A stretch of DNA of 64,000 nucleotides from Deinococcales bacterium (GTDB taxonomy: Bacteria; Deinococcota; Deinococci; Deinococcales; JAAFIG01), in assembly GCA_043778225.1 (NCBI GenBank), contig JAYWGM010000094.1, positions 1 through 64,000 on the forward strand, written 5' to 3'. Below are positions 4,037-39,810 of the stretch, in pieces. Numbering within the stretch: the stretch's first letter is position 1; the number at the start of each line of letters is the position of its first letter. The notes beneath the pieces were generated by a model. It had not been told where the DNA came from, did not search any database, and worked only from the letters and a program-made list of their open reading frames with translations. Position numbers and translations under genes: made by a program.

Positions 4037-4888
4037 CTAAGAAATCCCGTTCTGCTCGAGTTCTTCGGCACTTAATCCCGTTGCGGCTGCGATTTGCTCC
4101 AAGTTCATTCCCAAAGTTTTTAAGTTTCGGGCTGTCTTTAAGTTGGCGTTCAGTTCCCCTCGAGCCTCCCCTTCGGCAAAAGCTGTTTGTTGTGTCGCAA
4201 AGTTATCCCTAATAATTTTTAGACTGTACTCGTATTGGTCTCTGCCCTTTTGGTCAAGATTTGAGAATTTTGCTACTTCAAATGCACTCGAGAACATTTC
4301 ATCTCCAAGTAACTTTGGGATACTTTGTAAGTCCTTGAGATTGTTGATAAAAAACAACCACTTATCAAGGCGTGTTTCTAATTCCTCAAGTCCTTTTTTG
4401 AAGTTCGGCATCTCGAGGTACATTAGGGTTAGTTTGTCAGAGAATACGTTATTATTCTGGTCTTTGAGATTAACCTTATGCACCACTTCGTAAAGATTAG
4501 CTCGGTCATCATCGAAGGTAAAATCTAAAATGGCAATGCAATAAACAGGTGCAAGTTTATAATTCCAAGTACCTTTTTGTGCTTGTTGTTGAATTGGGAA
4601 AGTAGCATAAAATAGTGTTCTGTCCTTAAAAAAGTCTTGTTTTAATTTCTGTAACTCAACAATAAAATACTCGCCATTCACGCCTTGACAGTAAATATCG
4701 TAAACAGCTTTGCGTTCGTTTTCAATGCTGGGCAATTGCTCGAGATTCTTAAAACTAAGGTCTTTAATCTGGGCAAAAGCGGGCAATAACGAGTTCAAAA
4801 AGTCAATCAAATGGGGTTTTGATGCTTCTTCCCCAAAGATTTTTTTGAATCCGAAATCAGTAAATGGATTGATGAAGGTCGTGACCAT
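4037..4888 (-). CDS. Rpn family recombination-promoting nuclease / PD-(D/E)XK putative transposase, copy 1
   Basis: FINPFTDFGFKKIFG, AVYDIYC, FIVELQ motifs and a C-terminal EQIAAATGLS HTH-like tail. Confidence 0.92.
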   Translation of the reverse strand: MVTTFINPFTDFGFKKIFGEEASKPHLIDFLNSLLPAFAQIKDLSFKNLEQLPSIENERKAVYDIYCQGVNGEYFIVELQKLKQDFFKDRTLFYATFPIQQQAQKGTWNYKLAPVYCIAILDFTFDDDRANLYEVVHKVNLKDQNNNVFSDKLTLMYLEMPNFKKGLEELETRLDKWLFFINNLKDLQSIPKLLGDEMFSSAFEVAKFSNLDQKGRDQYEYSLKIIRDNFATQQTAFAEGEARGELNANLKTARNLKTLGMNLEQIAAATGLSAEELEQNGIS

Positions 4889-5070: not shown

Positions 5071-5177
5071 CACCAGCCAGCAACCCAATCTCAAGTCCAG
5101 CAAACAGAACAACCACCTCGTGAATTGGGTACACTTTCGTGGACATGAAGTTCGGTTTCAAATGGAAATCGGAGACT

Positions 5178-5531
5178 ATGATGTCAAAACAAATGAAAAC
5201 ATACACACTAGAGTTCAAGCAACAAGCCATCCAACTCGCCCAGCAAGAGGGAATGAGTATTTCACTAGCCGCTCGGGACTTAGGAGTCTCCCAAGCAGGA
5301 CTCAACCGATGGGTAAACTTAGCCAAGCAAGCTGACCTTCATGGACGACCAGCCTTTACTGGACGAGGTGTAATCGCATTGAGTGAATCCGAAAAGCGAA
5401 TGAAAGACCTTGAGCGAGAAGTGGTTTTACTTCGTCAGGAGCGTGAAATTTTAAAAGCAGCAGCCAAATTCTGTCTTGACCCTAAAGATGCACCTGACGG
5501 GCTGGGTCGCTTTGCCAAGGAGAGCCGGTAA
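5178..5531 (+). CDS. IS3 transposase OrfA with a 13-codon in-frame insertion
   Basis: YTLEFKQQAI...AARDLGVS HTH and LRQEREILKAAAKF; GGAG RBS before ATG 5178. Confidence 0.88.
   Translation: MMSKQMKTYTLEFKQQAIQLAQQEGMSISLAARDLGVSQAGLNRWVNLAKQADLHGRPAFTGRGVIALSESEKRMKDLEREVVLLRQEREILKAAAKFCLDPKDAPDGLGRFAKESR
5474..5510 (+). mobile_element. 37-bp structured micro-element, copy 1 (inside IS3 orfA)
   Basis: tcttgaccctaaagatgcacctgacgggctgggtcgc; homologs at 26884, 32429 and 39760. Confidence 0.8.
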
Positions 5532-5578
5532 GGTACGAATTTATCAAAGAAAATCTCGTAAAGTACCCACTAAAACCA

Positions 5579-6394
5579 ATGCTAAACGTTCTAAACGTCT
5601 CAAAAAGCGGTTACTATGCGTGGCTAAACCGACCGAAAAGCAAGCAAAAACTCGAGAATGAAGAACTTGCTAAGAGCATTGAGGAGGTCTATAACGAGTC
5701 TCGAGGCAACTCTGGCAGTCTCAAAGTATTACATGGCTTGGAGGCTCGAGGAATCAAGGCTAGTCGTCCTCGGATAGCCAGGATCATGAAGGCTCGAGGG
5801 TGGAAAGGTAAATGTAAACGCAAATTCCGTGTAACAACAGATTCTAAGCATTCTCATGGGTATTTTGAGAATAAACTCAATCGTGCTTTTGGAGCAGAAA
5901 AACCAAATATGAAATGGGCATCGGACATTACTTACATTCCCACAAGTGAGGGTTGGTTATATCTTGCTGTGGTGCTGGACTTATTCTCGAGAAAAACTGT
6001 GGGCTGGGCAATGGGAACGAGTCTCGAGGCGAGTCTGCCAGTAAAAGCACTTGAGATGGCTCGAGTGAGTCGTAAACCAAGTGATGGACTGCTACATCAC
6101 TCTGACCGTGGCGTGCAATACGCTAGTCTCGAGTTCCAAACGGCTGTTGGTAAATTCAATGGAATCTCGAGTATGAGTAGAAAGGGGAATTGCTGGGATA
6201 ATGCTGTGGTAGAGAGTTTCTTTGGTACTTTGAAGCTCGAGTTAGGTTTAGATAAAGTTATTGGGTCTCGAGAAGTCACAAAAGCTGTGGTGTTCGAGTG
6301 GATTGAAGTGTTCTACAATCGTCAACGGCTGCACTCAACAAATGGAACTTGGGACAGCCTTTTAGATGATATTGCTGAGGATTGTTCCAAATGA
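5579..6394 (+). pseudogene. IS3 transposase OrfB (DDE), C-terminally truncated and fused to the tail of an unrelated gene
   Basis: WASDITY, HHSDRGVQY and GNCWDNAVVESFF motifs. After RLHST the sequence becomes NGTWDSLLDDIAEDCSK*. Confidence 0.85.
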
Positions 6395-6899: not shown

Positions 6900-7787
6900 C
6901 TAAGAAATTCCGTTCTGCTCGAGTTCTTCCGTACTTAATCCTGTAATCGCCTGAATCTGTTCAAGTGTTAGTCCTGTGGCTTTTGAATTTCTCGCTACCT
7001 CGAGCTTGGCTTTTAGTTCTCCCTCGAGAATACCCGCTTCACGCCCTTTTGCTTCCCCTTCGAGAAGTCCTTCTTCTCTTGCCGATTTGAACGCCGAATA
7101 ATTATCCCGCAGACTTTTTAAGCTGTACTCATAGCTATCCCGTTCACTCGGCTCGAGATTCGCGTATTTGGCTGTTTCAAAGGCAGATAAAAAGGCTTCT
7201 TCTTTGAATAGTTCTGGAATTTGTTGCAAGTCCACTAAGTTCTTTAAGAAGTACAACCACTTATCTAGGCGGGTTTCTAATTGCTCGAGTGGCTTATCAA
7301 AATTTGGCATTTCAAGATAAATAAAAGTGAGTTTCTTGTAGAATACTTCATTGTTCTGGTCTTTGAGTTCAACCGTATGAACCACTTCGGTACGATTTGC
7401 TTTCTTATCATCGAAGGTAAAGCCTAAAACACCAACACAATACACGGGTTGAAGCAGGTAATCCCAGTCTCCTTTGGGTGCTTGGTCTTGAATTGGAAAC
7501 GTAGCATAGTAAAGTGTTCTATCCTTAAAGTTAATCTGTTTGACTTTTTGCAGTTCAACAATAAAATACTCACCATTTTTTCCACGGCAATAAATGTCGT
7601 AAACAGCTTTGCGTTCATCTTCGGAACGTGGGAGTTGCTCGAGATTCTTGAAACTCAAATCGGCTATTTTAGCATCATCTGGCAGCAGGGAATTGAGGAA
7701 ATCAATCAGATGAGGCTTACTGGCTTCCTCGCCGAAGATTTTTTTGAATCCAAAATCAGTAAATGGATTGATGAAGGTCGTAACCAT
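6900..7787 (-). CDS. Rpn family recombination-promoting nuclease / PD-(D/E)XK putative transposase, copy 2
   Basis: Same motifs as 4037-4888; identical N-terminal 36 aa and EELEQNGIS C-terminus. Confidence 0.92.
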   Translation of the reverse strand: MVTTFINPFTDFGFKKIFGEEASKPHLIDFLNSLLPDDAKIADLSFKNLEQLPRSEDERKAVYDIYCRGKNGEYFIVELQKVKQINFKDRTLYYATFPIQDQAPKGDWDYLLQPVYCVGVLGFTFDDKKANRTEVVHTVELKDQNNEVFYKKLTFIYLEMPNFDKPLEQLETRLDKWLYFLKNLVDLQQIPELFKEEAFLSAFETAKYANLEPSERDSYEYSLKSLRDNYSAFKSAREEGLLEGEAKGREAGILEGELKAKLEVARNSKATGLTLEQIQAITGLSTEELEQNGIS

Positions 7788-21326: not shown

Positions 21327-22412
21327 TTACCTTTTATTATCTTTATCCTGCCAACGCAAAAAGGTTGGAATCTCGTAAATGTCTGGTGAACTGTTCGGGT
21401 TGGGTATGACAGAAAATGGCTGGGTGAGCGGTGATTGCTGCCCGTTGCGAATAAAGTTGCCTAAACCGGGGGTGTCGTTAAAGCCGCTTGCCACCACTGT
21501 GACACGGATTTCATCGCCAGCGTTTTCGTCGTATGCCACACCAAACAGCACTTCGACGGTGTTTTGGTCAAAGCCAGTGGCTTCGGTAATCCGATTGACA
21601 ATTTCGTAGGTGTCTGAAAGCGTGACTTTTTCTTCGTGTCCCGTGATGTTAATTAAAATCTTTTTTGCACCTTCTATCGAGCGCTCGAGCAACGGCGAAT
21701 GAATCGCGCTCTTGACGGCATCTTCGATTAAGTTGTCGCCGTGTCCAGCCCCAATCCCCATCAGCACACTGCCCGCGTCTTTAAGTTGATTTTTGACATC
21801 GGCAAAGTCCACATTAATCATGCCGCTCGAGTTAATCACATCCGAAATACCTTTGATGCCAAAGTACAACACGCGGTCTGCCATTAAAAAAGCGTCTTTG
21901 AGCGATACTTTTTTGTCGGCGGCTTGAATCAGTTTTTCGTTGTTGACAATAATCATGCCATCCACGCGCTCGGAAAGTTTTTTGATGCCTTCTTCGGCAA
22001 CTCGCAAACGCTTGGGTCCTTCAAAACGAAATGGTCGGGTGACAATGGCGACCGTCAAAATACCCATTTCTCGAGCAATTTCGGCAACCACAGGAGCGCT
22101 GCCCGTACCCGTGCCGCCACCCATACCAGCCGTGATAAAGACCAAATCGGTATCTGCCAGATGTTCTTTGATGGTTTCGCGGTCTTCCTCGGCGGCTTTT
22201 TCGCCAACTTCTGGGTCTGCGCCCGCCCCTAAGCCTCGAGTAATTCTGTCGCCCATTTGAATGCGGTACTCTGCATGGCTTTTAGAAAGCACTTGTGCGT
22301 CGGTGTTGCCCGCGATAAATTCCACACCGTCCAAACCATTTTCGATCATGCGATTGACAGCGTTGTTTCCAGCGCCACCTAAGCCGATCACCCGAATTTT
22401 TGCTCCTAGCAC
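21327..22412 (-). CDS. ftsZ: Cell division protein FtsZ
   Basis: [19 protein letters not shown] and INVDFAD. Confidence 0.98.
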
Positions 22413-22468
22413 GATACGCCTCCCGAGCGCATCGAAGCGCGGGTTGAAATTTGAGTAGAAAAAACCAT

Positions 22469-23860
22469 TTAGAACCAGTCCTTGAAAAAACCACGTATTT
22501 TGTCCATCAGACCGGGCTTATCTTCGCTTGCCACCCGTTCGCGTTCTTGGATCGTCTCGAGTGTGCCTTCGGCACGTTCTAGGCGTGGCTCTAAACGCGC
22601 TTCGCTTCGGCTGTCCACACGGGCTGGCTCGAGTCGGATTGGTTCGGGCAGCAGCGTCTCTTCGGGGTGCGAATCCACCACATCCGAGCGAATTGCACCG
22701 CTTCCAGAGCCATGTTCCATGCCATACCAAATTAAGCCAACTACAGTGGCATGGGTCGGTGTCCCGATGAGACCATTTAAGCCGCCAGCCACAGGGCGGG
22801 GTTTACCAACTCGGACTGGTAACTTAAAGCGCTCACGGGCAAGTTCGACCACACCGCGCATCAGGGCAGTCCCGCCGGTCAAGACCACACCACCCGCGAT
22901 CAATTCGACTGGTCCAAGCACACTGTCTATTTCGGCTCGAGCCAAGTTAAAAATCTCGGCAACTCGAGGCTTGATAATACGGCTCAGGTCGTATGCCGAG
23001 ACACTTGGCACAACCCCGTTTTGGGTCAGTTCTAAATTCAGTTCTGGGTCGGCAAGTTCGGGTACAGCACTGCCGTATTTCTTTTTGACCCGCTCGGCTT
23101 CGTCGGCTGGAATTTTTAAGATTTGGGCTAAATCTTGGGTCACGTGTTCGCCACCAAGCGGCAAGACCGCACTGTGGGCAAGGTTGCCACGCCGAAAGAC
23201 CGCCACATCGGTTGTGCCGCCACCAATGTCTATCAGCACCGTGGTGGTGTCTTCCTCGACTGGCTCGAGGGTACTGAGTCCACTGGCATAGCCTTGTAGC
23301 ACCAAGCCATTGACATGAACCCCAGCTTGCGAGACACAGTGGCGCAGATTTGCCAAAGGTCCTTGTGAGCCAGTCACGATATGGACATCCACCTCGAGGC
23401 GAACGCCGTGCATTCCTAGGGGGTTTTTGATGCCTTCTTGACCATCCACGGTATATTCTTGAGGCAGAACATGAATCACTTCGCGGTTGGGGTCGAGCGG
23501 TACAGCTCTGGCATTTTCGACCGCGCGGTCAATGTCCGAACGGGCAATTTGTTGCCCTCGGCGAATCGCCGCTAAACCATGGCTGGTCAAAGCACTCAGA
23601 TGACCACCAGCCACGCCAACATAGACATCGCGCACCGACACCCCAGCCACCCGCTCGGCAGCACTGATGGCGGCTCTGATGCTGGCAGTTGCTCGCTCGA
23701 GATTGACCACCACACCGCGTTTTAAGCCTTCGGATGGCACTGTGCCTTCGCCGATAATATCGAGGATGTTATCCGAACCAACTTCACCGATAACAGTGGT
23801 GATTTTGGTACTGCCGATGTCCAAACCGACAATCAGCCGACTCTCTGTATTTGAGGTCAT
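22469..23860 (-). CDS. ftsA: Cell division protein FtsA
   Basis: VGLDIGSTK, IDIGGGTTD and VLTGG. Confidence 0.97.
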   Translation of the reverse strand: MTSNTESRLIVGLDIGSTKITTVIGEVGSDNILDIIGEGTVPSEGLKRGVVVNLERATASIRAAISAAERVAGVSVRDVYVGVAGGHLSALTSHGLAAIRRGQQIARSDIDRAVENARAVPLDPNREVIHVLPQEYTVDGQEGIKNPLGMHGVRLEVDVHIVTGSQGPLANLRHCVSQAGVHVNGLVLQGYASGLSTLEPVEEDTTTVLIDIGGGTTDVAVFRRGNLAHSAVLPLGGEHVTQDLAQILKIPADEAERVKKKYGSAVPELADPELNLELTQNGVVPSVSAYDLSRIIKPRVAEIFNLARAEIDSVLGPVELIAGGVVLTGGTALMRGVVELARERFKLPVRVGKPRPVAGGLNGLIGTPTHATVVGLIWYGMEHGSGSGAIRSDVVDSHPEETLLPEPIRLEPARVDSRSEARLEPRLERAEGTLETIQERERVASEDKPGLMDKIRGFFKDWF

Positions 23861-24483
23861 TGGACACTCACCCCCCATGTATAAACATTAACGCGCTTAC
23901 CTCGAGATTGCATAACCATCATTCTGACACTTTCCCCATGTTTCAGCAAACTGTCATGGGTTTGCGCCCAGATTTGCCCAGACTTAAAGCTCACCAAAAA
24001 CCCATTAGAATCAAATTTTACTCGAGTAGCGCCCATATCTTTTGCAGTTCGTGCCACCAAAAGGCTTTCAGCAAAACGGGCTTGGCTTTCGCCCTCGAGA
24101 ATGAGTGTGGCTTTTGCGCCTGGTAAAACCGTGCCATCTTCGGCAATCACGACTGTTTTACCTGTTTGTTTCCAAATAGCCAACGGCAGACGCTCGACCA
24201 ACCGAATCGTGATTTGCCCTGGAAAGCGTTTGACAATGCTGGCACGCAGCACCCACGGTTCGCGTTCAAGTGCCACGGCTCGAGCCGTTGAGACCCACAA
24301 CCACGGATTGCCTCGAGCCACACCCGCCATTTGTGCGACCTCTTTGGCAGCTAAATTCTTTGTGCCAGACACCAGCACTTGGTCAACTGGAAAGAAAAAC
24401 CAACTCGAGGCAAAAAGTACCACCACAATCACCCCAAGCGCAAAAAAAGAACGCCAGACGGTTTGTTTTATCGGATTAGTCAT
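23857..24483 (-). CDS. ftsQ: Cell division protein FtsQ/DivIB
   Basis: TM plus POTRA domain (PWV..ASIVKRFPGQITIRLVER.P); dcw position. Confidence 0.88.
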   Translation of the reverse strand: MTNPIKQTVWRSFFALGVIVVVLFASSWFFFPVDQVLVSGTKNLAAKEVAQMAGVARGNPWLWVSTARAVALEREPWVLRASIVKRFPGQITIRLVERLPLAIWKQTGKTVVIAEDGTVLPGAKATLILEGESQARFAESLLVARTAKDMGATRVKFDSNGFLVSFKSGQIWAQTHDSLLKHGESVRMMVMQSRGKRVNVYTWGVSVQ

Positions 24484-24504
24484 GCTGCCTCCCAGGCACA
24501 GTCA

Positions 24505-24586
24505 GGGTGAAAAGGTAAAAGGGTAAAAAGGTGAAAAGAAAAAAGCATCATACCTTTTACCTTTTCTACTTTTAACCTTTTGACCT
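24505..24586. repeat. Short tandem AAAAGG(T/G)-type repeats followed by their inverse complement
   Basis: gaaaaggtaaaagggtaaaaaggtgaaaag...ccttttaccttttctacttttaaccttttgacct. Confidence 0.8.
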
Positions 24587-25483
24587 TCATACCTTCCCCC
24601 AAATTTCAACTTCGCGCTCTAATGGTACACCCAAAGCGTTTTCAACTTGCTCGAGCAGTGCCAAGACATCGGTGGCAGTTGCGCCACCAAGATTGACGAT
24701 AAAATTACCATGCTCGAGTGAGACCATGGCGTTACCGACTTGTGTACCTTTTAAGCCAGCCAAATCTACCATTCGTCCAGCGCTGTTGCCAACGGGGTTT
24801 TTCCAAGCACAGCCAAAAGTGCGCCAGTGGGGTTGTCCTTTGCGGGCAGCGTCGGCAAGGTTCATGCGCTCTTGAACAATTTCGGGGGTTGTTTTCTCGA
24901 GTTTAAGTTTAACTTTGGTGACCACGCCAACGCCATTTTGACCTTGCGGTAGGCTCGAGTTGCGGTAGACAAAGCCGAGTTCTTGGGGCGTGTGGACTTT
25001 AGCAAGACCATCGGTCACGATTTCTAGCTCCGTGATGACATCTGCCATTTCGCCGTAACGTGTGCCAGCATTCATCCGGACTGCGCCGCCAATCTGGGCT
25101 GGCACACCCCAAAGCCCCTCGAGACCCGATAAACCAAGGCGCTGTAACTGGCGCACCAAACCTGGAATCGGTTTGGCTGCCCCGACCCAACCCGTAAAAA
25201 CATGGGTCTCGGTCTCGAGTTCTGGGGTTAAATCAGCTTGGCTGTATTCGCCACCCAACCGAATCACGCGCTCGGTCAAGCCCGCATCCGAGACAATTAA
25301 ATTGCTACCGCCACCCAAAACTTTATAGGGGGCTTTGGTCGCCTCGAGCAGTTGCGCCAAATTGTGGCAGACCCAAAGTTCAGCTTGTCCACCAACACCA
25401 AGGGTCGTAAACTGGGCTAAACGCACCACTCGAGGCAGACCTTTGGCGGTCGGACTTGGCATTACGCTACAGGCTTGGGTCAT
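24587..25483 (-). CDS. murB: UDP-N-acetylenolpyruvoylglucosamine reductase
   Basis: TTLGVGG, LGGGSN, GGAVRMNAG, HGNFIVN and LEREV. Confidence 0.95.
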   Translation of the reverse strand: MTQACSVMPSPTAKGLPRVVRLAQFTTLGVGGQAELWVCHNLAQLLEATKAPYKVLGGGSNLIVSDAGLTERVIRLGGEYSQADLTPELETETHVFTGWVGAAKPIPGLVRQLQRLGLSGLEGLWGVPAQIGGAVRMNAGTRYGEMADVITELEIVTDGLAKVHTPQELGFVYRNSSLPQGQNGVGVVTKVKLKLEKTTPEIVQERMNLADAARKGQPHWRTFGCAWKNPVGNSAGRMVDLAGLKGTQVGNAMVSLEHGNFIVNLGGATATDVLALLEQVENALGVPLEREVEIWGKV

Positions 25484-26850
25484 CGGGCAACCTCTGATAA
25501 GACTTCGCGCAGTACCTTGGTGACATCGCCAGCCCCCATGCTGACGATTAAATCGCCAGCTTGGGCAGTTTCTCGAATATGCTTTTTAACCGATGCCAAA
25601 TTTGGATAGTAGGTCACCTCGAGAAAACCTTGAGACTGCATTTTTTCGAGAATCCGCTGCGAATTAACCCCTTCAATTTGGCTTTCGCCAGCACTGTAAA
25701 TATCCAAAAGTAACACTTCGTGGGCATTTTGCAACACGGTCACGTATTTTTCCCAGTCTCTGGCGGTGCGAATCACGCGGTGTGGCTGAAAAATCACCCG
25801 CACCCGTTTATCGTAAGAAAGCGCCCCATAAATGGCGGCTTTGACTTTGGTTGGATTATGGGCGTAGTCGTCCACCAAGAGCGCTTTTTTGTATTCGCCC
25901 AAGACTTCCCAGCGCCGCCCAGCCCCACGAAAATTTGCCAGCGCCAGTGCGGCTTTTTCTAAATCCAAGCCCTCGAGATGCGCCACTGCCAAAGTTGCCA
26001 CGGCATTGAGGACATTGTGCGCCCCCGGCACAAGCAAGCGCACATCTACCAAAGGCAAGCCATGCAGGGTCAGGGTAAACGTCGGTTGTCCACCCTCGAG
26101 CTTGAGGTGACTGGCGCGGTAATCGCCACGCTCGATGCCATACGAAACCGCACCCTCGAGACAATCTTTAAGAATCTCCTCGAGAACCAGCCAATCGGCA
26201 CAGTAGACCACTTGTTTAGCATTGCCAGCAAATTCACAAAATGCCTGGTGCAAATCTGCCACACTGGCATGATAATTGTTGCGAACGTCGGCTTGGGACA
26301 GTGCCACATGGTCATCTTCGATGTTGGTGATGATTGCAATATCAGAATGCACTTTAGCAAAAAGCGGGTCGGACTCGTCTATTTCAGCAATAAAATGCAC
26401 CCCAGCCCCGACCTTAGCGTTGCCACCAATCGCCGCGACTTCGCCGCCAACAAAAGCCGTCGGGTCAGCGCCGCAATCCTCAAAAACAGTTGCTACCATC
26501 GCACTGGTACTGGTTTTTCCATGTGTCCCAGCCACCGAGATACCGCGTTTTAAGCGCATCAGGTCTGCTAACAATTCGATTCGCCGCAAAACCGTTTTAC
26601 CTTGTTCTCGAGCATACAGCACTTCGGGTTCATCGCTGTGGATACCCGTAGACAAAACCAGCGCATCCAAGTCTTGGGTCACGTGCAGCACCGAATGCCC
26701 ATGCGCCACTAAAATTCCAGCCGCCTCGAGTTCTCGAGTTTTTGGAAAAATATTTTTATCGCACCCAGAAACCTGATGCCCAAACGACTGCAAAATCAGG
26801 GCTAAACCGCTCATGCCGATTCCGCCAATGTCCATTAGATGGTAGTGCAT
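25480..26850 (-). CDS. murC: UDP-N-acetylmuramate-L-alanine ligase
   Basis: IGGIGMSG, GTHGKTSTS, EIDESD and DDYAHNP. Confidence 0.96.
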   Translation of the reverse strand: MHYHLMDIGGIGMSGLALILQSFGHQVSGCDKNIFPKTRELEAAGILVAHGHSVLHVTQDLDALVLSTGIHSDEPEVLYAREQGKTVLRRIELLADLMRLKRGISVAGTHGKTSTSAMVATVFEDCGADPTAFVGGEVAAIGGNAKVGAGVHFIAEIDESDPLFAKVHSDIAIITNIEDDHVALSQADVRNNYHASVADLHQAFCEFAGNAKQVVYCADWLVLEEILKDCLEGAVSYGIERGDYRASHLKLEGGQPTFTLTLHGLPLVDVRLLVPGAHNVLNAVATLAVAHLEGLDLEKAALALANFRGAGRRWEVLGEYKKALLVDDYAHNPTKVKAAIYGALSYDKRVRVIFQPHRVIRTARDWEKYVTVLQNAHEVLLLDIYSAGESQIEGVNSQRILEKMQSQGFLEVTYYPNLASVKKHIRETAQAGDLIVSMGAGDVTKVLREVLSEVAR

Positions 26851-26864
26851 GGCGCTCCCTTAGG

Positions 26865-26985
26865 GAAGGTAAAAAGGTAAAAAGCGACCCAGCCCGTGAG
26901 GTGCATCTTTAGGGTCAAGAAAGGTAAAAAGGCAAAAGAAGAACCTTTTAACCCTTTGACCCTTTGACCTTTTAACCCTTTTTTC
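26865..26985. repeat. AAAAGGT-type tandem repeats and inverse complement, interrupted by the micro-element
   Basis: aaggtaaaaaggtaaaaa[element]aaggtaaaaaggcaaaag...ccttttaaccctttgaccctttgaccttttaaccc. Confidence 0.8.
26884..26920 (-). mobile_element. 37-bp structured micro-element, copy 2
   Basis: Reverse complement tcttgaccctaaagatgcacctcacgggctgggtcgc, one mismatch to copy 1. Confidence 0.85.
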
Positions 26986-28060
26986 ATAATCCCTCGAGTA
27001 TCGCGTCTGCTAGGCGCTTGGCTGCGCCAACTGGACTGTTTTTTTGTACAACACTTCGCCACTCAGCGAGGTGAGCCGCATCCAAGCATGACAGCATACC
27101 GCTTACCAGCTTGCCGTCAATACCCAAAAGTTCGGCTTCTAGGTCCGGCTCGAGAACACATAAGCCAGCCCCCCGAGCTTCGAGGGCTTGGGCATTTTTG
27201 ACCTGATGGTTTTCTGCACTGCTGGGCAGTGGAATTAAAGCCAGTGGCACACCATGAAAAGCTGCGTCGGCAATCGTACTCATACCGGCTCTGGTAATCC
27301 CAAAATCAGCCGCCGAAAAAGCGGCTGCACCATCTATAAATTCGGCACACTTGTACCAAGGCAAGTGTTTGACCTGAGATGCAACTTCCTCGAGTCTGCC
27401 ACGCCCAGTCTGATGCAGCACTTGGGCATTTTTGCCTGTTAGAATTCGCTCGAGAAGCGGCGGCAGCAAGGTATTGAGGCGCACACTGCCCTGCGAGCCA
27501 CCCATCACCAGCACCGTGAATTTATCTGGCTCGAGATCAAACATGGCTCTTGCCTCGAGACGTAGCACAATGGTTTCGCGCACGGGCATACCGACCACCA
27601 CTGTTTTGGCGTTTTTCAGGTGGGTTTTTGTGGCGGCATCGGCTAAGGCAATCAGTTTGGCTCGAGTCGCAAAAAGCCGTGTCACCAAGCCCGGAAAAGC
27701 ATTGGCTTCGTGCATCGCCAGTGGCGTACCCGTGAAAAAAGCGCCCGCCATGCCGGGAAAACTGGCAAAGCCGCCAAACCCAACGACCAAATTTGGTTGA
27801 TATTGGCGCACCACTCGAGTTGCATCTAAAAAACCCATGCCCGCATTCCAGAGCGCTACTGGGTTTGGGCGCGAACGGTCTAATTTACCTGCCCGAACGC
27901 CAAAAAATTCAAGGGCTTCGTCTCGAGCCAGACGCTCTTCCATACCGCCAGACGCACCAATTAAGGCACTTTGTATGCCTCGAGTTTTGAGTTCTCGAGA
28001 TAGGGCTATGGCGGGGAAAATATGCCCAGCCGTGCCGCCTGCCGAAAGCAGAATTTTCAT
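26984..28060 (-). CDS. murG: Undecaprenyl-PP-MurNAc-pentapeptide GlcNAc transferase
   Basis: GGTAGHIFP, GFGGFAS, HEAN, GGSQG and HQVKNA. Confidence 0.96.
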   Translation of the reverse strand: MKILLSAGGTAGHIFPAIALSRELKTRGIQSALIGASGGMEERLARDEALEFFGVRAGKLDRSRPNPVALWNAGMGFLDATRVVRQYQPNLVVGFGGFASFPGMAGAFFTGTPLAMHEANAFPGLVTRLFATRAKLIALADAATKTHLKNAKTVVVGMPVRETIVLRLEARAMFDLEPDKFTVLVMGGSQGSVRLNTLLPPLLERILTGKNAQVLHQTGRGRLEEVASQVKHLPWYKCAEFIDGAAAFSAADFGITRAGMSTIADAAFHGVPLALIPLPSSAENHQVKNAQALEARGAGLCVLEPDLEAELLGIDGKLVSGMLSCLDAAHLAEWRSVVQKNSPVGAAKRLADAILEGL

Positions 28061-28063
28061 GCT

Positions 28064-29200
28064 TTAATCGCCACTCTCGAGCAGTTGCCCACGCAGGTGT
28101 GGTCTTGGGGTGCTGCGTTTTTCGTGTTTGACCAAAAGCGCATGAGCGCCGTGCATCCAGCCCATAACAATCGCACAAGCCACCATACTCGAGCCACCAT
28201 CGGAAACAAACGGTAGAGTCATGCCCGTATTAGGAAAACGCCCAATCGTGACTGCCAAGTTAATCAGGGCTTGGGCGACCAAAAGCAGCATTGCGCCACC
28301 ACACAAAATACTGGCGGCATCGCGTTCGTCAGCATCTATATGAACCGCCTTTGAAAGCCGCCGCATGGTGTCTAAACCAACCCAAAGAATACAGGCAAAA
28401 GCAGCAAAAATCGTGGTGATGCCCAATAACCCAAGGCTGTGTGCCACCGTCGAAGACACAAAATCGTTGGTTTCAGCAAAGAACTTAAATTTATCTTGAG
28501 CTGGTCCACGCCCATATACGCCACCACGTTCAATCACACACCGCGCAAATTCGACTTGGGTTTTATCGGGTTTATAACACAGGTCGTCGGTGCGGAGGGT
28601 GTCGGTAAAACCATCGAGTCTCGAGCCAATATAATTATTTTGCTGCACATAATAGCCAATCAAAGGCGAGGCAATCACGGCGGCAGTTATAGCGATACTC
28701 AGAATTCTGCCAATTGGTGCGTTAGCCAAAAACATCACACCCAAGCCAAGCATAAACGTAAAAATCCCAGCCGAGGTACTTGGCGCAAGTAAAATCAGCA
28801 CACTGGTTGCTCCAAGTGCCAAAGCTGGAACCCAAAGCGCATAGCGTGTACCGCGCCGTGCAAAAAAAGAGGCAAAATAAGCAATTAAAGCCACTTTGGC
28901 AAACTCGGAGGGTTGGAACTGAAAGCCAAAAATTGGAATCCAGCGCCGCACACCGTTGATTTCGCGCCCAAAAAACAAGACCGCCACCAGAGCAATTAAA
29001 CACAAGACCCAAGCGTATTTACCAAGTTGTACCGAAGCTCCAGCCCTAAGCTGCGAAACCGCCAAAGTAACGGCTAAACCCAAGCCAATAAAAATCAGGC
29101 TGCTTGGCACATCGGCAGGTGTGGCGGTTGCCATTGCCAGTGTTCCCAAAGCAAAAAGCACCAACTGAGCAGCCAGCAATAACGGATTAAGTGGTTTCAT
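28064..29200 (-). CDS. ftsW: SEDS family protein FtsW
   Basis: NGVRRWI, FQPSEFAK, NDF and PNTGMTLPFVSDGGSS. Confidence 0.93.
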   Translation of the reverse strand: MKPLNPLLLAAQLVLFALGTLAMATATPADVPSSLIFIGLGLAVTLAVSQLRAGASVQLGKYAWVLCLIALVAVLFFGREINGVRRWIPIFGFQFQPSEFAKVALIAYFASFFARRGTRYALWVPALALGATSVLILLAPSTSAGIFTFMLGLGVMFLANAPIGRILSIAITAAVIASPLIGYYVQQNNYIGSRLDGFTDTLRTDDLCYKPDKTQVEFARCVIERGGVYGRGPAQDKFKFFAETNDFVSSTVAHSLGLLGITTIFAAFACILWVGLDTMRRLSKAVHIDADERDAASILCGGAMLLLVAQALINLAVTIGRFPNTGMTLPFVSDGGSSMVACAIVMGWMHGAHALLVKHEKRSTPRPHLRGQLLESGD

Positions 29201-30546
29201 GATGCTCCTTTTTTGAGTGCTGTCACAGTTGCATCTTTGAGTGCTGTCACAGTTCCATCTTTGAGTGCTTGGACTGCATCCCGAAAAGCCAGTCCTCGAG
29301 CTTTATAATTTTTATACAAATCAAAACTTGTGCCAAGTGGCGCAAGCAGCACACTGCCACCTTTGGCAAGTTCAAAACCGAGTTGAACGGCTTTGGGCAT
29401 GAGTGTTTCGGCAGTTTCGGCGCTCAGGTCTACAATCCGAATTCCAGTGTGCTGCAAGGCTTTGGCATAAACCAGACCCGATTCACCAAAAGCAAGTAGC
29501 ACGGCTACTTTTTTCATCAAAGGCTCGAGTTTCAAAAATTCGGTGCTGTGTTCTTCGGGGGTCAGTTTATCGCGCCCACCCACAATCCATGCAATCGGGG
29601 CTGGGGCATTCTCGAGGGCGCTCTGGACAGCCAGAACCCGTGTGGCGATACTGTCTTCGATAAAGCGAGTATTTTGGAGAATCGCAATGGTTTCAAAACG
29701 CCCAGCCACACCGGGAAACTCCAGCAGGGCTTGGCGCATTTTTTCAAGGTTTGGCAATTTATCATGGCGCTTTAAGTATGCCAGCACCGCCACGACCGCG
29801 ACTCGAGCATTTTGTGGATGAACCGTGTTTGGAATCTCCTCGAGTGTTAATAGTGTTGTACCTTGGGCTAAAACTGCCCCAGATTCGGCAACTCGCGCCA
29901 GTTGCGCCTGTGTCTCGCGCCCAAGGGCTAAGGATTCTGGTAGCACCAAGGTATCGTTGACCCCAAGATTCTTGGCAATCTGCCATTTGGCGGCTTGATA
30001 GGCTGCCAGTGAACCATGATCGCGGATGTGGTCTACGCCAATGTTGGTGATCACCGCCACTTCTGGGCGGTAGGTCTGGATGCGCTCTAACTGGAAACTC
30101 GAGAGTTCGACCACACAGACTTGGGCATCCAGCACATCCAAAAGCGGTGGGTCAAAATTGCCACCGACTTTGGCGTTTAGCCCTTGCGACTCGAGCAAGT
30201 GGGCAATTAAAAGCGTGGTGCTGCCTTTTCCAGCTGTACCTGTAATGCCGATACTTGAGAATGTAGCGGTTCTAAAAGCCAGTTCGACTTCGCCCCAGAC
30301 TGGAATGTTAGCCGCTTTTGCCGCCTGCATACTCGGGTGCAGCATCATCACCCCGGGCGCAGCCACCACAAGTTCAATCCCAGATAAATCAAAAGTCTCG
30401 AGCCGCAAAAACCCCAATGCCAATGCCTCGGATGCGCCAAATGGGTTTGATGATTCATCAAACCAGACTCCAGACCAGCCAAGTTTAGCAAGGTGGCGGA
30501 TTACACTCGAGCCACTGCGCCCTAGCCCAAAAACAAGGGTTTTCAC
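29197..30546 (-). CDS. murD: UDP-N-acetylmuramoyl-L-alanine-D-glutamate ligase
   Basis: GLGRSG, GITGTAGKGST, ELSSFQL, EDSIAT and SFDLY; GTG start overlaps the mraY stop. Confidence 0.95.
   Translation of the reverse strand: MKTLVFGLGRSGSSVIRHLAKLGWSGVWFDESSNPFGASEALALGFLRLETFDLSGIELVVAAPGVMMLHPSMQAAKAANIPVWGEVELAFRTATFSSIGITGTAGKGSTTLLIAHLLESQGLNAKVGGNFDPPLLDVLDAQVCVVELSSFQLERIQTYRPEVAVITNIGVDHIRDHGSLAAYQAAKWQIAKNLGVNDTLVLPESLALGRETQAQLARVAESGAVLAQGTTLLTLEEIPNTVHPQNARVAVVAVLAYLKRHDKLPNLEKMRQALLEFPGVAGRFETIAILQNTRFIEDSIATRVLAVQSALENAPAPIAWIVGGRDKLTPEEHSTEFLKLEPLMKKVAVLLAFGESGLVYAKALQHTGIRIVDLSAETAETLMPKAVQLGFELAKGGSVLLAPLGTSFDLYKNYKARGLAFRDAVQALKDGTVTALKDATVTALKKGAS
29212..29268. repeat. 24-bp tandem repeat (about 2.4 copies) in the murD 3' end
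   Basis: ttgagtgctgtcacagtt(g/c)catct; encodes ALKDGTVT-ALKDATVT-ALK. Confidence 0.9.
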
Positions 30547-31475
30547 ACCTGACCGCCCGTCATGATACTCCAAGCCAGCATCGTGGCAACCGCCGTAATG
30601 GCAAGAAAACGCACTGTAACCTTGGTTTCCGCCCAACCAAGTTTTTCAAAATGATGATGAATTGGAGTCATTAAAAATAGACGTTTATCCACACCGTGAA
30701 AGCGTTCGTTATAGCGCTTAGAAAGAACTTGCAGCACGACACTGACAATTGCCATGACTGGAAAAATCGCAGCGATTGGTAAAACCCAGGTCCAACCTTG
30801 GGTGATGTAAACGCCAGCCACAACACCGCCAAGGGCATGAGACCCTGCATCTCCCATGAAAATTTGGGCTTTTGGGGCATTAAACCATAAGTAGCCAAGC
30901 AGGGCTGCCACGGTCATACCTGCAATTGGCGATAAACCAATTAATGGCACAAGAATAATGGCAACCGTCCCCGCACAAAGTCCGTCTAAGCCATCGGAGA
31001 AGTTAATCGCATTGGCAGTACCGACTGCCACAAAGCAGTAAAAAGCCGCATCCAACCAAAAGTTGCCAAGTAAAGAAATTTGACCCGCCACGACATAAGC
31101 AAAGCCTGCTGCCACAAAAATTTGGGCTGGGAATTTGTAACGCGCTGGTAAATCGCCTCGAGTAGCACGCCCGAGCATTCTCGAGCGGACAATGCTGATG
31201 TCGTCCCATGCACCAACGCAGTACATCCCAAAAGCCAGCCAGACCACCGCCCAACCTTTGATGTCTGACATTCCAGTCAAGCCAACAAAACCCAGCCAGA
31301 CCACAAAAATAACCAATGTGAACGGAATCCCGCCCATTGTTGGTGTGCCGTCCTTGACCAAATGGGTTGCAGGACCATCGCGACGCACGGTTTGTCCCCA
31401 ACCGCGCTGCTTGGCGAAACGCAAAAAAATACCAACCGCAAACCACGATAACAAGGCTGTCAAAACAAATCTCAT
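30543..31475 (-). CDS. mraY: Phospho-N-acetylmuramoyl-pentapeptide transferase
   Basis: GTPTMGG, NAINFSDGLDGL, FMGDAGS and PIHHHFE. Confidence 0.96.
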   Translation of the reverse strand: MRFVLTALLSWFAVGIFLRFAKQRGWGQTVRRDGPATHLVKDGTPTMGGIPFTLVIFVVWLGFVGLTGMSDIKGWAVVWLAFGMYCVGAWDDISIVRSRMLGRATRGDLPARYKFPAQIFVAAGFAYVVAGQISLLGNFWLDAAFYCFVAVGTANAINFSDGLDGLCAGTVAIILVPLIGLSPIAGMTVAALLGYLWFNAPKAQIFMGDAGSHALGGVVAGVYITQGWTWVLPIAAIFPVMAIVSVVLQVLSKRYNERFHGVDKRLFLMTPIHHHFEKLGWAETKVTVRFLAITAVATMLAWSIMTGGQV

Positions 31476-31491
31476 GGTGATACCTCGACCT

Positions 31492-32301
31492 TCATCGTGT
31501 CACCAAACAAGCTCGAGTCATCAGCGACACAAACGACCGCGCATCAAAAAACGCCACACTCGAGCCAACTGCCACTGCCAGTGTATCGCCACCAACTGCA
31601 AGGCTCGAGCCAGTGCTGGATAAGATGATGGTTTTGATTGGCTGCTCGTTGCTGCTGACTTGGACGGTTGATTTGTCTAAAGTGTAGGTGTAGCCCAATG
31701 AGCGCACAGCTTGCCCGCGCACCACCGCATAGGTATTTTGGTCAGCCACCAAGGAAAAATTATTGTTCTCGAGTTGGCGTACTCGAGTAACAGCATTGGA
31801 CAAAACATAGATTTCTTTACCGACCAAAGCAAAAGTGCTGCTTGGTAAGTCCAGCACACTTGAAGGTAAACTCGGCACACGCCCGATTTTTGTGCCATCA
31901 AAACGAAAAACATCACCCTCAAGCGTAAAAATAAAACGGCTTGAAAGAAGGCTCGGTTGTCCAGCCACGCCAAGACTTTGCGGCACACCCTCGGCGCGTT
32001 GCACCAATCCAGCCCGAGGCAGTGCCAACCACCACGCATTGTTGTACCAAGCCACACTCGAGATTCGCAAAGGGGCTTCAAACCAACCATGCCCCGTTTG
32101 TCCACGAATTGCAGCTCGAGAAAAAACCGCCGCCATACTTGAGTTGGCTGCCACACAGACTGCATCGCCGTTGGGATTGACCACCAGACTGGCAATGCTA
32201 TTCAGGCTCGAGCTTTGACTGGCTTGGGTGGCTTGGACTGGAACGCAAGCCGATAAAATTATCAACACCAGCAAAGCTGCTTTGGCATTTTGCCTTGGCA
32301 T
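31492..32301 (-). CDS. Putative lipoprotein (possible beta-propeller) within the dcw cluster
   Basis: Signal peptide with lipobox LSAC; start set at MPRQNAK because the upstream frame is REP-derived. Confidence 0.65.
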   Translation of the reverse strand: MPRQNAKAALLVLIILSACVPVQATQASQSSSLNSIASLVVNPNGDAVCVAANSSMAAVFSRAAIRGQTGHGWFEAPLRISSVAWYNNAWWLALPRAGLVQRAEGVPQSLGVAGQPSLLSSRFIFTLEGDVFRFDGTKIGRVPSLPSSVLDLPSSTFALVGKEIYVLSNAVTRVRQLENNNFSLVADQNTYAVVRGQAVRSLGYTYTLDKSTVQVSSNEQPIKTIILSSTGSSLAVGGDTLAVAVGSSVAFFDARSFVSLMTRACLVTR

Positions 32302-32303
32302 AT

Positions 32304-32481
32304 CAGGGTGATGACCCCTACGGTTTTTTGGTTTGTGTAGGGGCGAACCTTGTGTTCGCCCTGCTTTAGCCTGTGTTCGCCCTGCTTTAGCATTTTGCAA
32401 CAGCCTTGGCGAGTCAGGGTAGACACGGGCGACCCTGCCCGATAGGTGCGTGTTTTGGGTCAAGAAAGGGTCTACCCCTAC
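32304..32481. repeat. Cluster of GTAG-type REP hairpins with a 21-bp duplication and an inserted micro-element
   Basis: gtaggggcgaaccttgtgttcgccct (32337-32362), cagggtagac...gtctacccctac (32415-32481), partial copy at 32304-32321; tgtgttcgccctgctttagc twice. Confidence 0.8.
32429..32465 (-). mobile_element. 37-bp structured micro-element, copy 3 (diverged, in a REP loop)
   Basis: Reverse complement tcttgacccaaaacacgcacctatcgggcagggtcgc. Confidence 0.75.
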
Positions 32482-32515
32482 GGCTGGATAGGCTCTGTTG
32501 TTCTGATTCGGCTTA

Positions 32516-33802
32516 TTAGAGGCGTTCACGCAGCACCTCCACAATTTGCTCTAGCTGCATAAATCTTGAGCCTTTAACAAGGATGGTATCGCCGTTTTGA
32601 ATATCTGGTAAAAAACGCTGCTTGGCTTCGGTGGTGCTGGCATACCAAAGCGCATCTGCGCCGTTCTCGAGGGCGGCTTGAGCTAAGGCATCGCCGTGTT
32701 CACCAATCGCAATCACAAGGTCAGCAAGTTGCCCAGCCGTTGCCCCAACTTCGCTGTGGTAGCGGCGGCTGTCAACACCAAGTTCGCGCATATGCCCTAA
32801 AATTGCCACCTTGCGCCCAGAAAAGCGTGCAAGGGTCTCGAGACTGGCGGTCATCGAAAGCGGATTGGCGTTGTAAGCATCGTCTATTAGCGTAATTTTA
32901 CCACGTTCAATCTTCAGCCGCCCACCGGGGATTTGGCTGTTCTCGAGCCGATTTTTGGCGGTCTCGAGCGCAATTCCATAGTGTTCTGCCAGCGCCAGTG
33001 CCAAGACTGCACTTTCGGCAATCTGCAAACTTGGGGTCTCGAGACGGATTGACTGCCCATGGTAGCTAAAACTGACCGCTTCAGCACTGACTTGGACATT
33101 GATGGCGCGGTGGCTGCACGACTCGAGGAAACCATAACTGTTGGTGTTTGGGTATCGGTGCGCCGTATTTCCAGCCACCAAATTATATGGGGCTTGAAGA
33201 ATTCGACCTTTTTCGTACTGCACCGTTTCGACACTGCCTAAAAATTCGGTGTGCGCCGCGCCAACTGCCGTAATCACGCCAACATTGGGCGCAACCAGTG
33301 CCATCAGGTCGTCCATTTCACCAATTCGGTCTATGCCCATTTCAATCACATGGGTGCTGTCGGCAGTCACCTCGGAGAGCAAATAGCACGCCAAGTAATT
33401 GAGGGTATTGAGGTTGCCGGGCGTACACGAACAATCCAGCGCACTCGAGACCAGACTTTTGGCGGTGGTTTTGCCTGCCGAACCAGTGATGCCGATTATT
33501 TCGGCTTGGGTTGAGTCGCGGTGCAACCTTGCCCAACTTCGTAAGGCAACCGTGGCATCTGGCACACGCACGGCTCGAGGCACATCCTGGTCGGTCAAGA
33601 TAAAAGGCGCACCCGCCTCGAGGGCAGCCTCAATAAAGTCATTGCCATGCCGGGTTGCCCCTTGGAGGGCAGCAAAAGCGGTATTTGGGTCGCACTCCGA
33701 ACTGACAAAACTGATTCGCTGGGCGGGTCGGGCATCGCTCGAGATGGTGGCATGGAGTTGTTGGGCATATTGGTGAGGGTCAATCATTTGCGCCTCGAGC
33801 AT
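32516..33802 (-). CDS. murF: UDP-MurNAc-tripeptide-D-Ala-D-Ala ligase
   Basis: GITGSAGKTT, IEMG, DDAYNANP and VKGSR. Confidence 0.95.
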   Translation of the reverse strand: MLEAQMIDPHQYAQQLHATISSDARPAQRISFVSSECDPNTAFAALQGATRHGNDFIEAALEAGAPFILTDQDVPRAVRVPDATVALRSWARLHRDSTQAEIIGITGSAGKTTAKSLVSSALDCSCTPGNLNTLNYLACYLLSEVTADSTHVIEMGIDRIGEMDDLMALVAPNVGVITAVGAAHTEFLGSVETVQYEKGRILQAPYNLVAGNTAHRYPNTNSYGFLESCSHRAINVQVSAEAVSFSYHGQSIRLETPSLQIAESAVLALALAEHYGIALETAKNRLENSQIPGGRLKIERGKITLIDDAYNANPLSMTASLETLARFSGRKVAILGHMRELGVDSRRYHSEVGATAGQLADLVIAIGEHGDALAQAALENGADALWYASTTEAKQRFLPDIQNGDTILVKGSRFMQLEQIVEVLRERL

Positions 33803-33804
33803 AC

Positions 33805-33858
33805 TTGAGTATCATGTGTAAGTGATTCATCATTGAGTATCATGTGTAAGTCACTCAT
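33805..33858. repeat. 28-bp tandem duplication between the PBP gene and murF
   Basis: ttgagtatcatgtgtaagt(g/c)a(t/c)tcat twice. Confidence 0.85.
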
Positions 33859-33862
33859 GGTT

Positions 33863-36947: not shown

Positions 36948-37059
36948 CTCCCACCCATTCCCACCCTGCTTAGATTCGCTGCTCGAGACCACCTCGAGCA
37001 ATAACACGACCAGCAAAAGGTGAATCGTTCTCGGAAGAGAATATCACGCTTTGCCTAGT

Positions 37060-37120
37060 TTTACCACTCAGCCCCACAAATCCCCATTTAAGAGGCATTT
37101 TTCACATTGTTTTCCCACTT
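37060..37120 (-). promoter_or_regulatory. Probable MraZ-binding (G/A)TGG(G) boxes upstream of mraZ
   Basis: Minus strand aaATGGGgatttGTGGGgctgaGTGGTaa with 10-bp spacing, plus an upstream GTGGG. Confidence 0.65.
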
Positions 37121-37962: not shown

Positions 37963-37991
37963 AAATCCTTTAGAATATACCTTGAAAAATT

Positions 37992-39746: not shown

Positions 39747-39810
39747 CAGGGAGACCACTTCTTGACTCTAAAGATGCACCTTCGGGCTGAGTCGCAAGGG
39801 TCTCCCCTAC
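39747..39810. repeat. GTAG-type REP hairpin interrupted by the micro-element
   Basis: cagggagacc...[36 bp]...ggtctcccctac. Confidence 0.75.
39760..39795 (+). mobile_element. 36-bp structured micro-element, copy 4
   Basis: tcttgactctaaagatgcaccttcgggctgagtcgc; GACTC/GAGTC replaces GACCC/GGGTC. Confidence 0.85.

Follow-up and report, generated by a model that had tools for sequence, protein, structure and literature searches.

The first 64,000 nucleotides (nt) of one contig from an uncultured Deinococcales bacterium (hereafter the window, meaning the whole stretch that was analysed) hold four copies of a tiny repeat with a covarying stem, which we call the micro-element. It is very probably mobile and non-autonomous. 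A preliminary description of the window, drawn up from its letters alone, had proposed a non-autonomous unit mobilised as structured single-stranded DNA or RNA by an enzyme encoded elsewhere. This proposal has held up well: alleles with empty sites exist, the covariation persists, no coding parent shares the element's ends, and the orientation relative to a CT dinucleotide is fixed. Movement of a folded single strand by an enzyme acting in trans agrees with all the tests made and is supported. The best explanation, whose chances we judge to be about even, is a non-autonomous hairpin micro-transposon that resembles the repetitive extragenic palindromes (REPs).

The window corresponds to C94:1-64000 of a draft genome, G000 (4.03 Mb in 107 contigs, 48.7% G+C, 89% complete). 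It was compared with 18 genomes in five genera (g1-g5) of this uncultured Deinococcales family, all of them similar to metagenome-assembled genomes (MAGs) and 57-94% complete; G001-G007 and G018 below are family genomes other than G000. Cross-species comparisons were made within the genus at 70-78% DNA identity, and 22 near-complete genomes from the other four families of the order served as the outgroup for a pattern census.

Four copies and their hosts

The copies and the sequences around them are the following.

5472..5510, plus strand: copy 1, inserted in frame into IS3 orfA; the 39 nt consist of TG and the 37-nt element (5474-5510)
5139..6394, plus strand: IS3-family insertion sequence hosting copy 1, with orfA at 5139-5531 (HTH_Tnp_1) and orfB at 5579-6394 (rve)
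26884..26920, minus strand: copy 2, in an intergenic spacer with a CCTTTTTA 8-mer array
32429..32465, minus strand: copy 3, in a REP loop; the REP hairpin is of GTAG type
32415..32481, minus strand: REP hairpin around copy 3, GTAGGGGTAGACCC ... GTGTCTACCC, read directly from the sequence
39760..39795, plus strand: copy 4, 36 nt long with a 3-nt loop and a GACTC/GAGTC outer stem, in a REP loop
39748..39810, minus strand: REP hairpin around copy 4, with GTAG on the minus strand, GTAGGGGAGACCC ... GGTCTCCCT

All four lie where the preliminary description had placed them, and they are the only matches in the window to a degenerate 19-mer pattern for which 0.23 matches are expected (none of 100 shuffles reached four). 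Its account of their hosts stands in large part. Copy 1 does split orfA, adding 13 codons (CLDPKDAPDGLGR) that a paralogue on contig C73 lacks, and both copy 3 and copy 4 can be seen in the loops of GTAG REP hairpins. Copy 2 does interrupt a tandem array, but the unit given for it, AAAAGGT, has to be corrected: 8-mers (CCTTTTTA on the element strand) stand next to heptamers, making this an 8-mer array and not strictly one of AAAAGGT. A search of the whole window with the curated Rfam models gave no match at the gathering score.

Filled and empty sites

The two IS3 paralogues in the window and on C73 are 82% identical and reciprocally filled and empty. Where the window orfA holds 39 nt, the C73 orfA is empty and reads AAATT-CT-TTGC; conversely, the C73 orfB holds a 40-nt micro-element on the opposite strand at a place where the window orfB is empty. 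The preliminary description had named the lack of any empty allele among IS3 relatives as a sign against mobility; the C73 element is such an allele, and empty sites exist among both paralogues and orthologues.

Matching of flanks across G000 yielded 54 paralogous pairings of a filled with an empty site, with inserts of 39 nt (31 pairings), 38 nt (15), 40 nt (3), 37 nt (2), 41 nt (2) and 36 nt (1). Between species, the REP around copy 4 is empty in the orthologues of G003 and G005, which show a 37-nt gap, and a dnaE-internal REP that carries a 39-nt copy in G000 has none in G003, G006 and G004. The spacers orthologous to that of copy 2 are without a copy in G006, G002 and G005. Copy 3 is missing from the orthologous spacers of G007, G001, G006 and G002, while the spacer of G003 has a different copy elsewhere. 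Assembled contigs of two biofilm metagenomes that may each be the source of this DNA, contigs being blind to rare alleles, were compared with positions 22000-41999 of the window; they show no indel at copies 3 and 4, and their joints near copy 2 are repeat-graph artefacts stemming from other copies.

The micro-element also inserts into repeats, including itself, and frequently into the unpaired loops of hairpins. Seventeen copies lie in the loop of another copy, often one of a different sub-family and up to three deep, at least nine lie in REP loops, and 21 occupy fixed sites of two related repeats of about 130 nt that resemble miniature inverted-repeat transposable elements (MITEs). The ends of these two repeats are of TAAGTAYCTC type in X and of ATACCGAATTAA type in Y; both contain three internal hairpins and carry 0-3 micro-element copies, with some of the sites filled and some empty. 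They break the assembly, and no parent insertion sequence was identified for either. Examples are found at

G000 contig ends, e.g. C12:500-690, C105:1-400, the end of C58, and C98:44420-44660: MITE-like repeats X/Y

Neighbouring copies no more than 100 nt apart nearly always point the same way (24 pairs in the same orientation vs 1 in opposite orientation). The micro-element has no coding content of its own, and in G000 no longer element with the same ends was found that could be a coding parent; widely separated arms occur only where an IS110-family element splits copies.

Could the micro-element lack transposition of its own and merely hitch-hike in REPs, X/Y units and IS3, its arrays being the work of gene conversion and slippage? 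Many copies do sit in larger units that amplify as a whole, be it composites of REP and micro-element or the X/Y units at contig ends, and the differences in tandem copy number resemble slippage. Such passive transport is nevertheless hard to reconcile with precise solo insertions in unique contexts, namely IS3 orfA and orfB, the copy-4 REP, the REP loop in dnaE and the left end of an IS110-family element, nor does it go well with the nesting of different sub-families in each other. Among the explanations considered we find it the least credible, and highly improbable.

Anatomy and covariation

Read from its 5' side, the unit of 36-39 nt begins with CT, 0-1 nt and TCTTG, followed by the 5' arm of an outer stem (5-7 nt), an A-rich bulge of 5-6 nt and GC(A)CC. 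After a loop TNNC come GGGC, the 3' arm of the outer stem, (T/G)CG and again CT. The alignments behind the covariation counts consist of the four window copies and copies from other MAGs, further G000 copies having been analysed by script. Among 102 distinct aligned copies (4 from the window and 98 from other MAGs), T1 C2 T3 T4, C18 A19 C20 C21 T22 and G26-G28 are invariant, and G5, G17, C29 and the 3' CGC nearly so. What stays fixed is thus the 5' TCTT together with the bulged-A inner hairpin and the first T of the loop; the outer stem conserves pairing and not sequence.

The structure put to the test, on 48 gap-free copies of 37 nt, pairs positions 4-10 with 30-36 as the outer stem, leaves 11-16 as a bulge on the 5' side and closes the loop TNNC with an inner helix GC(A)CC/GGGC. 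In this alignment 95.3% of cells are paired, a value reached by 0 of 500 shuffles; the share is 86.5% after shuffling and 28-43% when partners are slid. Double-sided changes affect five of the seven outer pairs and 49 cells, again beyond all 500 shuffles. Among the covarying pairs are 6-34 (AU41/CG7), 7-33 (CG39/UA7), 9-31 (CG25/AU15) and 10-30 (UA14/CG12/AU4). Since the inner helix never varies, the alignment provides no evidence for or against its pairing. A second class of 38 nt, the "GCTC" class with 25 sequences, is 96.8% paired and covaries at 9-32 (AU17/GC8) and 10-31 (UA13/CG7). An alternative extension of the inner stem in this class fits less well, being 91.6% paired with a covariation score of 0.080 vs 96.8% and 0.184 for the outer stem, pair 16-30 excepted. 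The change from GACCC/GGGTC to GACTC/GAGTC that had been called compensatory in copy 4 is real, and the covariation, whose loss in a larger alignment had been named as a sign against the proposal, survives in both the 48- and the 25-sequence alignments.

Among the top strands tested, those of 37 nt have the proposed structure as their minimum-energy RNA fold, whereas the 36-nt window copy 4 and the 38-nt class do not. One internally deleted copy of 25 nt, at C1:26236-26260 of G000, joins TCTTGACCCTAAAG to GGCTGGGTCGC and is without the inner hairpin; it lies within a tandem and nested cluster.

Target site and junctions

Insertion sites have a common signature. Counting distinct flanks, CT stands 0-2 nt 5' of TCTTG in 79 of 103 G000 copies and 91 of 104 copies from other MAGs. 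A T comes after the element, completing a right-hand ...CG-CT, in 71 of the 103 and 93 of the 104, respectively. Read by eye, the base after ...CG is C in 126 of 127 listed G000 copies, and in none do the flanks read AG, from which a single orientation relative to the non-palindromic CT emerges. Here the preliminary description, which saw no clear target duplication, needs to be revised: most copies are bracketed CT...CT, and pairs of filled and empty sites show 1-4 nt of redundancy. In clean events this redundancy is mostly CT, T or TT, with CA once and G once, and one event is flanked by CA...CA. At GT and TT targets, too, CT stands on the right, hence the right-hand C belongs to the element. 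An extra G before TCTTG is inherited within a sub-family, giving tandem units of 39 nt vs 38 nt. The simplest description is an insert (T)(G)TCTTG...CGC that is placed before a T, preferably within CT. Nesting follows because the element's own loop offers a CT.

Part of this pattern would also be expected of an ordinary MITE, that is, an element of double-stranded DNA, bounded by terminal inverted repeats of 5-7 bp, that is moved by a DDE transposase and generates a 2-bp target duplication. The outer stem can be read as a pair of short inverted repeats, and half of the clean events have a 2-nt repeat, CT or CA. Transposase-binding sites, however, predict the reverse of the observed conservation, in which the inverted repeats covary and the unpaired and inner parts are fixed. 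A symmetric DDE reaction would moreover give both orientations relative to CT and not one; the right-hand C is borne by the element and not by the target in three events (GT/CT, GT/CT, TT/CT), and there is no longer element with the same ends. An ordinary MITE is therefore improbable.

Copy number, spread and location

A covariance model built from 48 copies, with E<=0.01 as the threshold for a match, was used to score 150 of 3826 first-look candidates in G000 and gave at least 121 matches, making the four window copies part of a sizeable family. A genome-wide census by regular expression, which counts un-nested copies, found 127. Copies occur within 300 nt of 22 of the 214 contig ends, whereas about 1.6% of G000 lies that close to an end and about 2 of 127 copies would be expected there; the true copy number is thus higher than counted. 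In practice, these repeats break assemblies of this family.

The pattern of left arm, loop and GGGC has between 1 and 170 matches per genome in 18 of 18 genomes of the family and in all five genera, vs 0-2 in the 22 outgroup genomes, which is the level of a backwards-pattern control. Likewise, the covariance model found no match in 150 genomes of the four outgroup families within a sample of the phylum. When one genome per species was scanned, at least 112 stretches matched; among the matches listed, nearly all are in Deinococcales or Deinococcota MAGs, which bears out the phylum assumed in the preliminary description, and about 17 loci of unrelated taxa are single matches without a right arm, as arise by chance. 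The micro-element is a trait of one uncultured Deinococcales family.

Most copies avoid genes. Outside open frames of at least 150 codons lie 107 of the 127 copies vs 609 of 3000 random positions, and inside such frames 20 of 127 vs 2391 of 3000. The gene-borne copies include those in purL (2), dnaE, dnaX (4 in tandem, 39 nt), a U32 peptidase gene and IS3 orfA, and also some in open frames that hold Fer4 and Complex1_30kDa (nuoC-like) domains. Essential genes with an in-frame REP and/or micro-element in G000 are

C15:4273-8337: dnaE
C51:60894-63290: dnaX
C4:13263-17102: purL

The modal insert, of 39 nt, amounts to 13 codons and can be read through in four of six frames. A selfish insert of this size can evidently persist within dnaE, dnaX and purL. 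The REP inside dnaE is, for its part, common to at least four species of the genus.

The same data bear on a route via RNA, in which a transcribed hairpin would be copied back by a reverse transcriptase at nicked T-rich sites. This route could explain why the proposed structure is the minimum-energy RNA fold in the 37-nt class and why an invariant pair is U.G, which would be a C.A mismatch on the other strand; the 1-4 nt of microhomology at the junctions is also reminiscent of target-primed reverse transcription. On the other hand, with 14 sense and 12 antisense copies there is no bias relative to transcription, insertions have an exact 5' boundary, and neither poly-A nor truncated 5' ends are seen. 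The genome holds one reverse transcriptase gene, which lies beside an AAA ATPase and has weak matches to defence-type and group II models; as a single, defence-like gene it was rejected as the mover. We attach little probability to this route.

An IS110-family element lands in the loop

The invariant loop of the micro-element is itself a target. In G000 the only widely separated arms belong to three nested host copies that are split by an element of the IS110 family:

C26:30448-31608 (L146/L181): IS110-family element of 1161 bp with PF01548 and PF02371 domains; relatives are L182-L189

Relatives of this element occur in 8 of 19 family genomes. At all eight loci read, the insertion sequence lies in a micro-element loop as ...GCAC-CT | IS | CT-NAC-GGGC..., one of them with a degenerate left arm, and the insertion point is the same loop CT that is used by nested micro-element copies. 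In G005 the host is a copy in IS3 orfA, at the very site of window copy 1. At the left end of the IS110-family element, GCACCT and CCGTAAG match the two halves of the target, and ACGGCTGC matches its own right end, an arrangement that a bridge RNA with a target and a donor guide would be predicted to show. Six of the eight in turn carry a micro-element at the CT of a donor-like stretch in their left end; the two empty ones provide a further filled and empty pair. This IS110 lineage uses the invariant loop of the micro-element as its landing site, and a bridge recombinase thus appears to have tuned its target guide to another mobile element. Both a CT core and the targeting of REPs are described for IS621 (PMC11208160).

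It is tempting to turn this relationship around and to let an IS110-type recombinase with its bridge RNA, or another recombinase, move the micro-element, either as a circle of some 39 nt or through site-specific recombination with CT as its core; the flanking CT would in that case be a core held in common and no duplication. The CT...CT flanks and the fixed orientation fit exchange at a core dinucleotide, tandem arrays show the junction ...CG-CT-(G)TCTTG, the IS110-family element uses the identical loop CT at eight of eight loci, and CT is also the core of IS621 (PMC11208160). What argues against core exchange is that the targets (IS3 orfA and orfB, the REP loop in dnaE, arrays, MITE sites) have only CT or T in common, where IS110 targeting requires about 11 matched bases (PMC11208160). 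The ends of the micro-element differ from those of IS110, whose left end corresponds to its donor and to the loop target but not to the micro-element junction, and the IS110-family element is found in only 8 of 19 family genomes. A left GT or TT combined with a right CT (GT/CT, TT/CT) is also unlike a matched core. Core exchange is accordingly unlikely, if still the most plausible of the alternatives to a REP-like micro-transposon.

A candidate mover

Which enzyme could mobilise a hairpin of this kind? For the REP-like micro-transposon favoured here, we infer a Y1 HUH enzyme acting on single-stranded DNA that resembles the tyrosine transposases associated with REPs (RAYTs), a candidate whose prospects we would put slightly below even. 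The invariant parts would let such a protein bind the top strand in its folded form; it would then cleave at the two CTs that bracket the hairpin and transfer the excised piece to a CT elsewhere in single-stranded DNA. According to the RAYT literature (PMC8266576, PMC3479197), RAYTs cut single-stranded DNA at CT, 5' or 3' to the hairpin of the REP, at a distance that varies, one RAYT also cuts CA, changes to the guide lead to GT, CC or GA, and RAYTs transfer strands. A CT-bracketed hairpin that is pasted at CT in exposed loops and in one orientation is the product expected of a RAYT, and RAYT-like genes are the best candidates. The gene in G000 is

C32:27219-27881 (L139 2217-2882, minus strand): RAYT-like gene encoding an HVH motif and a tyrosine in NYWERVIR

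The best NCBIfam match of the C32 protein is NF047646 (REP-associated tyrosine transposase) with 58.9 bits, under the cut-off of 80, and it matches Pfam Y1_Tnp with 36 bits at a cut-off of 23; most of the RAYT-like proteins score under the NF047646 cut-off. RAYT-like genes are present in 16 of the 18 family genomes vs 6 of the 22 others. In both G000 and G006 a micro-element sits 24 nt upstream of the RAYT start codon (ATG), within a GTAG REP loop, and the copy in G006 is of a different sub-family. Among 16 family RAYT loci scanned, four have a copy (two upstream at 24 nt, one inside the gene and one 506 nt downstream), and the locus of G018, scanned separately, has a micro-element upstream.

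Several observations weigh against a RAYT-driven, hairpin-based mechanism. To begin with, the stability of the hairpin is unremarkable, with DNA folds of -1.7 to -3.8 kcal/mol (z about 0) and RNA folds of -6.9 to -10.8 kcal/mol for the top strands folded (z -0.3 to -1.4), so that a protein would be needed to hold a thermodynamically ordinary fold. Several targets are other than CT (GT, TT, TG, CA), and the redundancy ranges over 1-4 nt. Orientation is unbiased relative to GC skew (47 vs 56), which is weak in G000; taken together with the lack of bias relative to transcription, this argues against a function at the RNA level. The micro-element lacks GTAG, which is required by, or serves as a guide for, the RAYTs characterised to date, and its TCTT 5' tail is unable to pair with CT. 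Ordinary GTAG REPs flank the RAYT genes, with 2-8 GTAGGG-like hexamers within 300 nt of the gene at 20 of 20 loci, and are probably the cognate substrate. A micro-element is close by at only 4 of the 16 scanned family loci, plus that of G018; RAYT-like genes without micro-elements occur in six genomes of other families; and in G005, which is 84% complete and carries about 60 copies, no RAYT-like gene was found. Finally, three of seven aligned RAYT-like proteins, from three g5 genomes, have no tyrosine at the catalytic position (FWDRIVR).

Other candidates were examined and rejected. Two PDDEXK_2 (PF12784) nuclease- or transposase-like genes flank the window IS3 on the minus strand, at 4037-4888 and 6900-7787, and thus stand beside copy 1. 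This family is confined to g1 and one g5 genome, with 3 matches in G000, 1-10 in six of the seven other g1 genomes and a match in 1 of the 11 genomes of the other four genera; none is present in the copy-rich g2-g4. The sole IS200/IS605 tnpA-tnpB pair of G000, on C28, has ends unrelated to the micro-element. A search for IS91 Y2 transposases was uninformative, for neither it nor its control gave a match anywhere.

It is possible, though we rather doubt it, that a single-strand transposition system with readable products has in the micro-element its smallest natural substrate, the driver being either a RAYT-like HUH enzyme on a hairpin without GTAG or an enzyme class not yet linked to transposition. 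A 37-nt hairpin would then hold all the cis information for mobility, tolerate insertion into essential proteins and serve as a landing pad specified by an IS110 guide RNA. Should the mover indeed be a RAYT, cut-and-paste junctions of the RAYT type would here be on record across a genome for the first time.

Two observations concern the RAYT-like genes themselves. The gene on C32 holds an in-frame REPIN, that is, two inverted GTAG REPs, in a linker where its relatives have other low-complexity inserts. Judging from translations alone, a RAYT-like gene appears to lie between hsdM-like and hsdS-like genes of type I restriction-modification in G003 (C98:105300-108600) and G001 (C284).

A highly iterated palindrome

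Independently of the micro-element, the palindrome CTCGAG occurs 24,877 times in the 4.03 Mb of G000 (6.2 per kb), the next commonest 6-nt palindrome 2,854 times; in the window it can be seen, for example, at 39670-39700 and 5650-6300. It is a highly iterated palindrome (HIP) comparable in kind to the cyanobacterial HIP1. A search of a review of HIPs gave no mention of CTCGAG or Deinococcus (PMC4390886).

Comparison with known systems

Our literature search turned up no published description of the micro-element and no paper printing its motifs. It can nonetheless be set beside several known kinds of small mobile DNA. Like REPs and REPINs with their RAYTs, it is an imperfect palindrome in the 20-40 nt range that is present in many copies, most of them outside genes. 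The irregular stem, here with a bulged A and a 5'-side bulge, and the bracketing by CT, the dinucleotide cut by RAYTs, are further parallels to REPs as the RAYT papers present them (PMC8266576, PMC3479197), and both kinds of repeat serve as targets of the IS110 family (PMC11208160). The differences are equally apparent. The micro-element has no GTAG or CGTC tag at the foot of its hairpin and has instead a TCTT 5' tail and a CGC 3' tail across the 102 aligned copies. Its copies are direct tandem or nested units (24 same vs 1 opposite), unlike the inverted doublets of REPINs and bacterial interspersed mosaic elements (BIMEs), and 20 of 127 lie inside long open frames. In a REPtron the RAYT gene is flanked by its cognate repeats; here separate GTAG REPs flank the RAYT genes, with a micro-element nearby at some loci. 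Exact filled and empty sites are plentiful, which is unusual for REPs. Failing both the tag and the doublet comparison, the micro-element is not a member of the REP or REPIN families as defined.

MITEs differ in that no parent insertion sequence is found here, the redundancy varies from 1 to 4 nt and the orientation relative to CT is fixed. The IS200/IS605 family and its non-coding derivatives, the palindrome-associated transposable elements (PATEs), insert, according to PMC8266576, in a single-stranded, hairpin-dependent and orientation-specific manner beside a short target and without a true duplication, all of which they have in common with the micro-element. These elements, though, have separate hairpins at their left and right ends and a target of 4-5 nt.

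Like the Rickettsia palindromic elements and the MITEs of Coxiella, the micro-element is a palindromic repeat that is tolerated inside protein-coding genes. Rickettsia palindromic elements measure 100-150 bp; the micro-element is 3-4 times smaller, and it nests.

Small repeats of the cyanobacterium Nostoc and its relatives offer another parallel. Elhai et al. (2008, Genome Res 18:1484) reportedly described the small dispersed repeats (SDRs) SDR4-6, mobile units of 21-27 nt with hairpin potential and no known enzyme, which belong to the sequence families SDR1-8 of Nostocales. These SDRs are said to lie within one another, within tandem arrays of heptamers and within mini-transposons. A citing paper gives SDR5 as a 21-nt repeat of unknown function (PMC13756078). 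Compared with these SDRs, the micro-element comes from another phylum, has another sequence and is longer (37-39 nt).

Very small mobile repeats are, to our knowledge, otherwise known only from cyanobacteria, and the present family extends them to Deinococcota. The way in which REP-like repeats multiply is still debated on largely indirect grounds, and here dozens of exact filled and empty junctions become available. The nested insertions, the sub-families with compensatory stems and the fixed orientation to CT bring the question within reach of a test with a single protein and a handful of oligonucleotides. Nearest in kind are REPs and the small dispersed repeats of cyanobacteria, and next to them the micro-element stands as one of the smallest mobile DNAs with exactly readable insertion sites.

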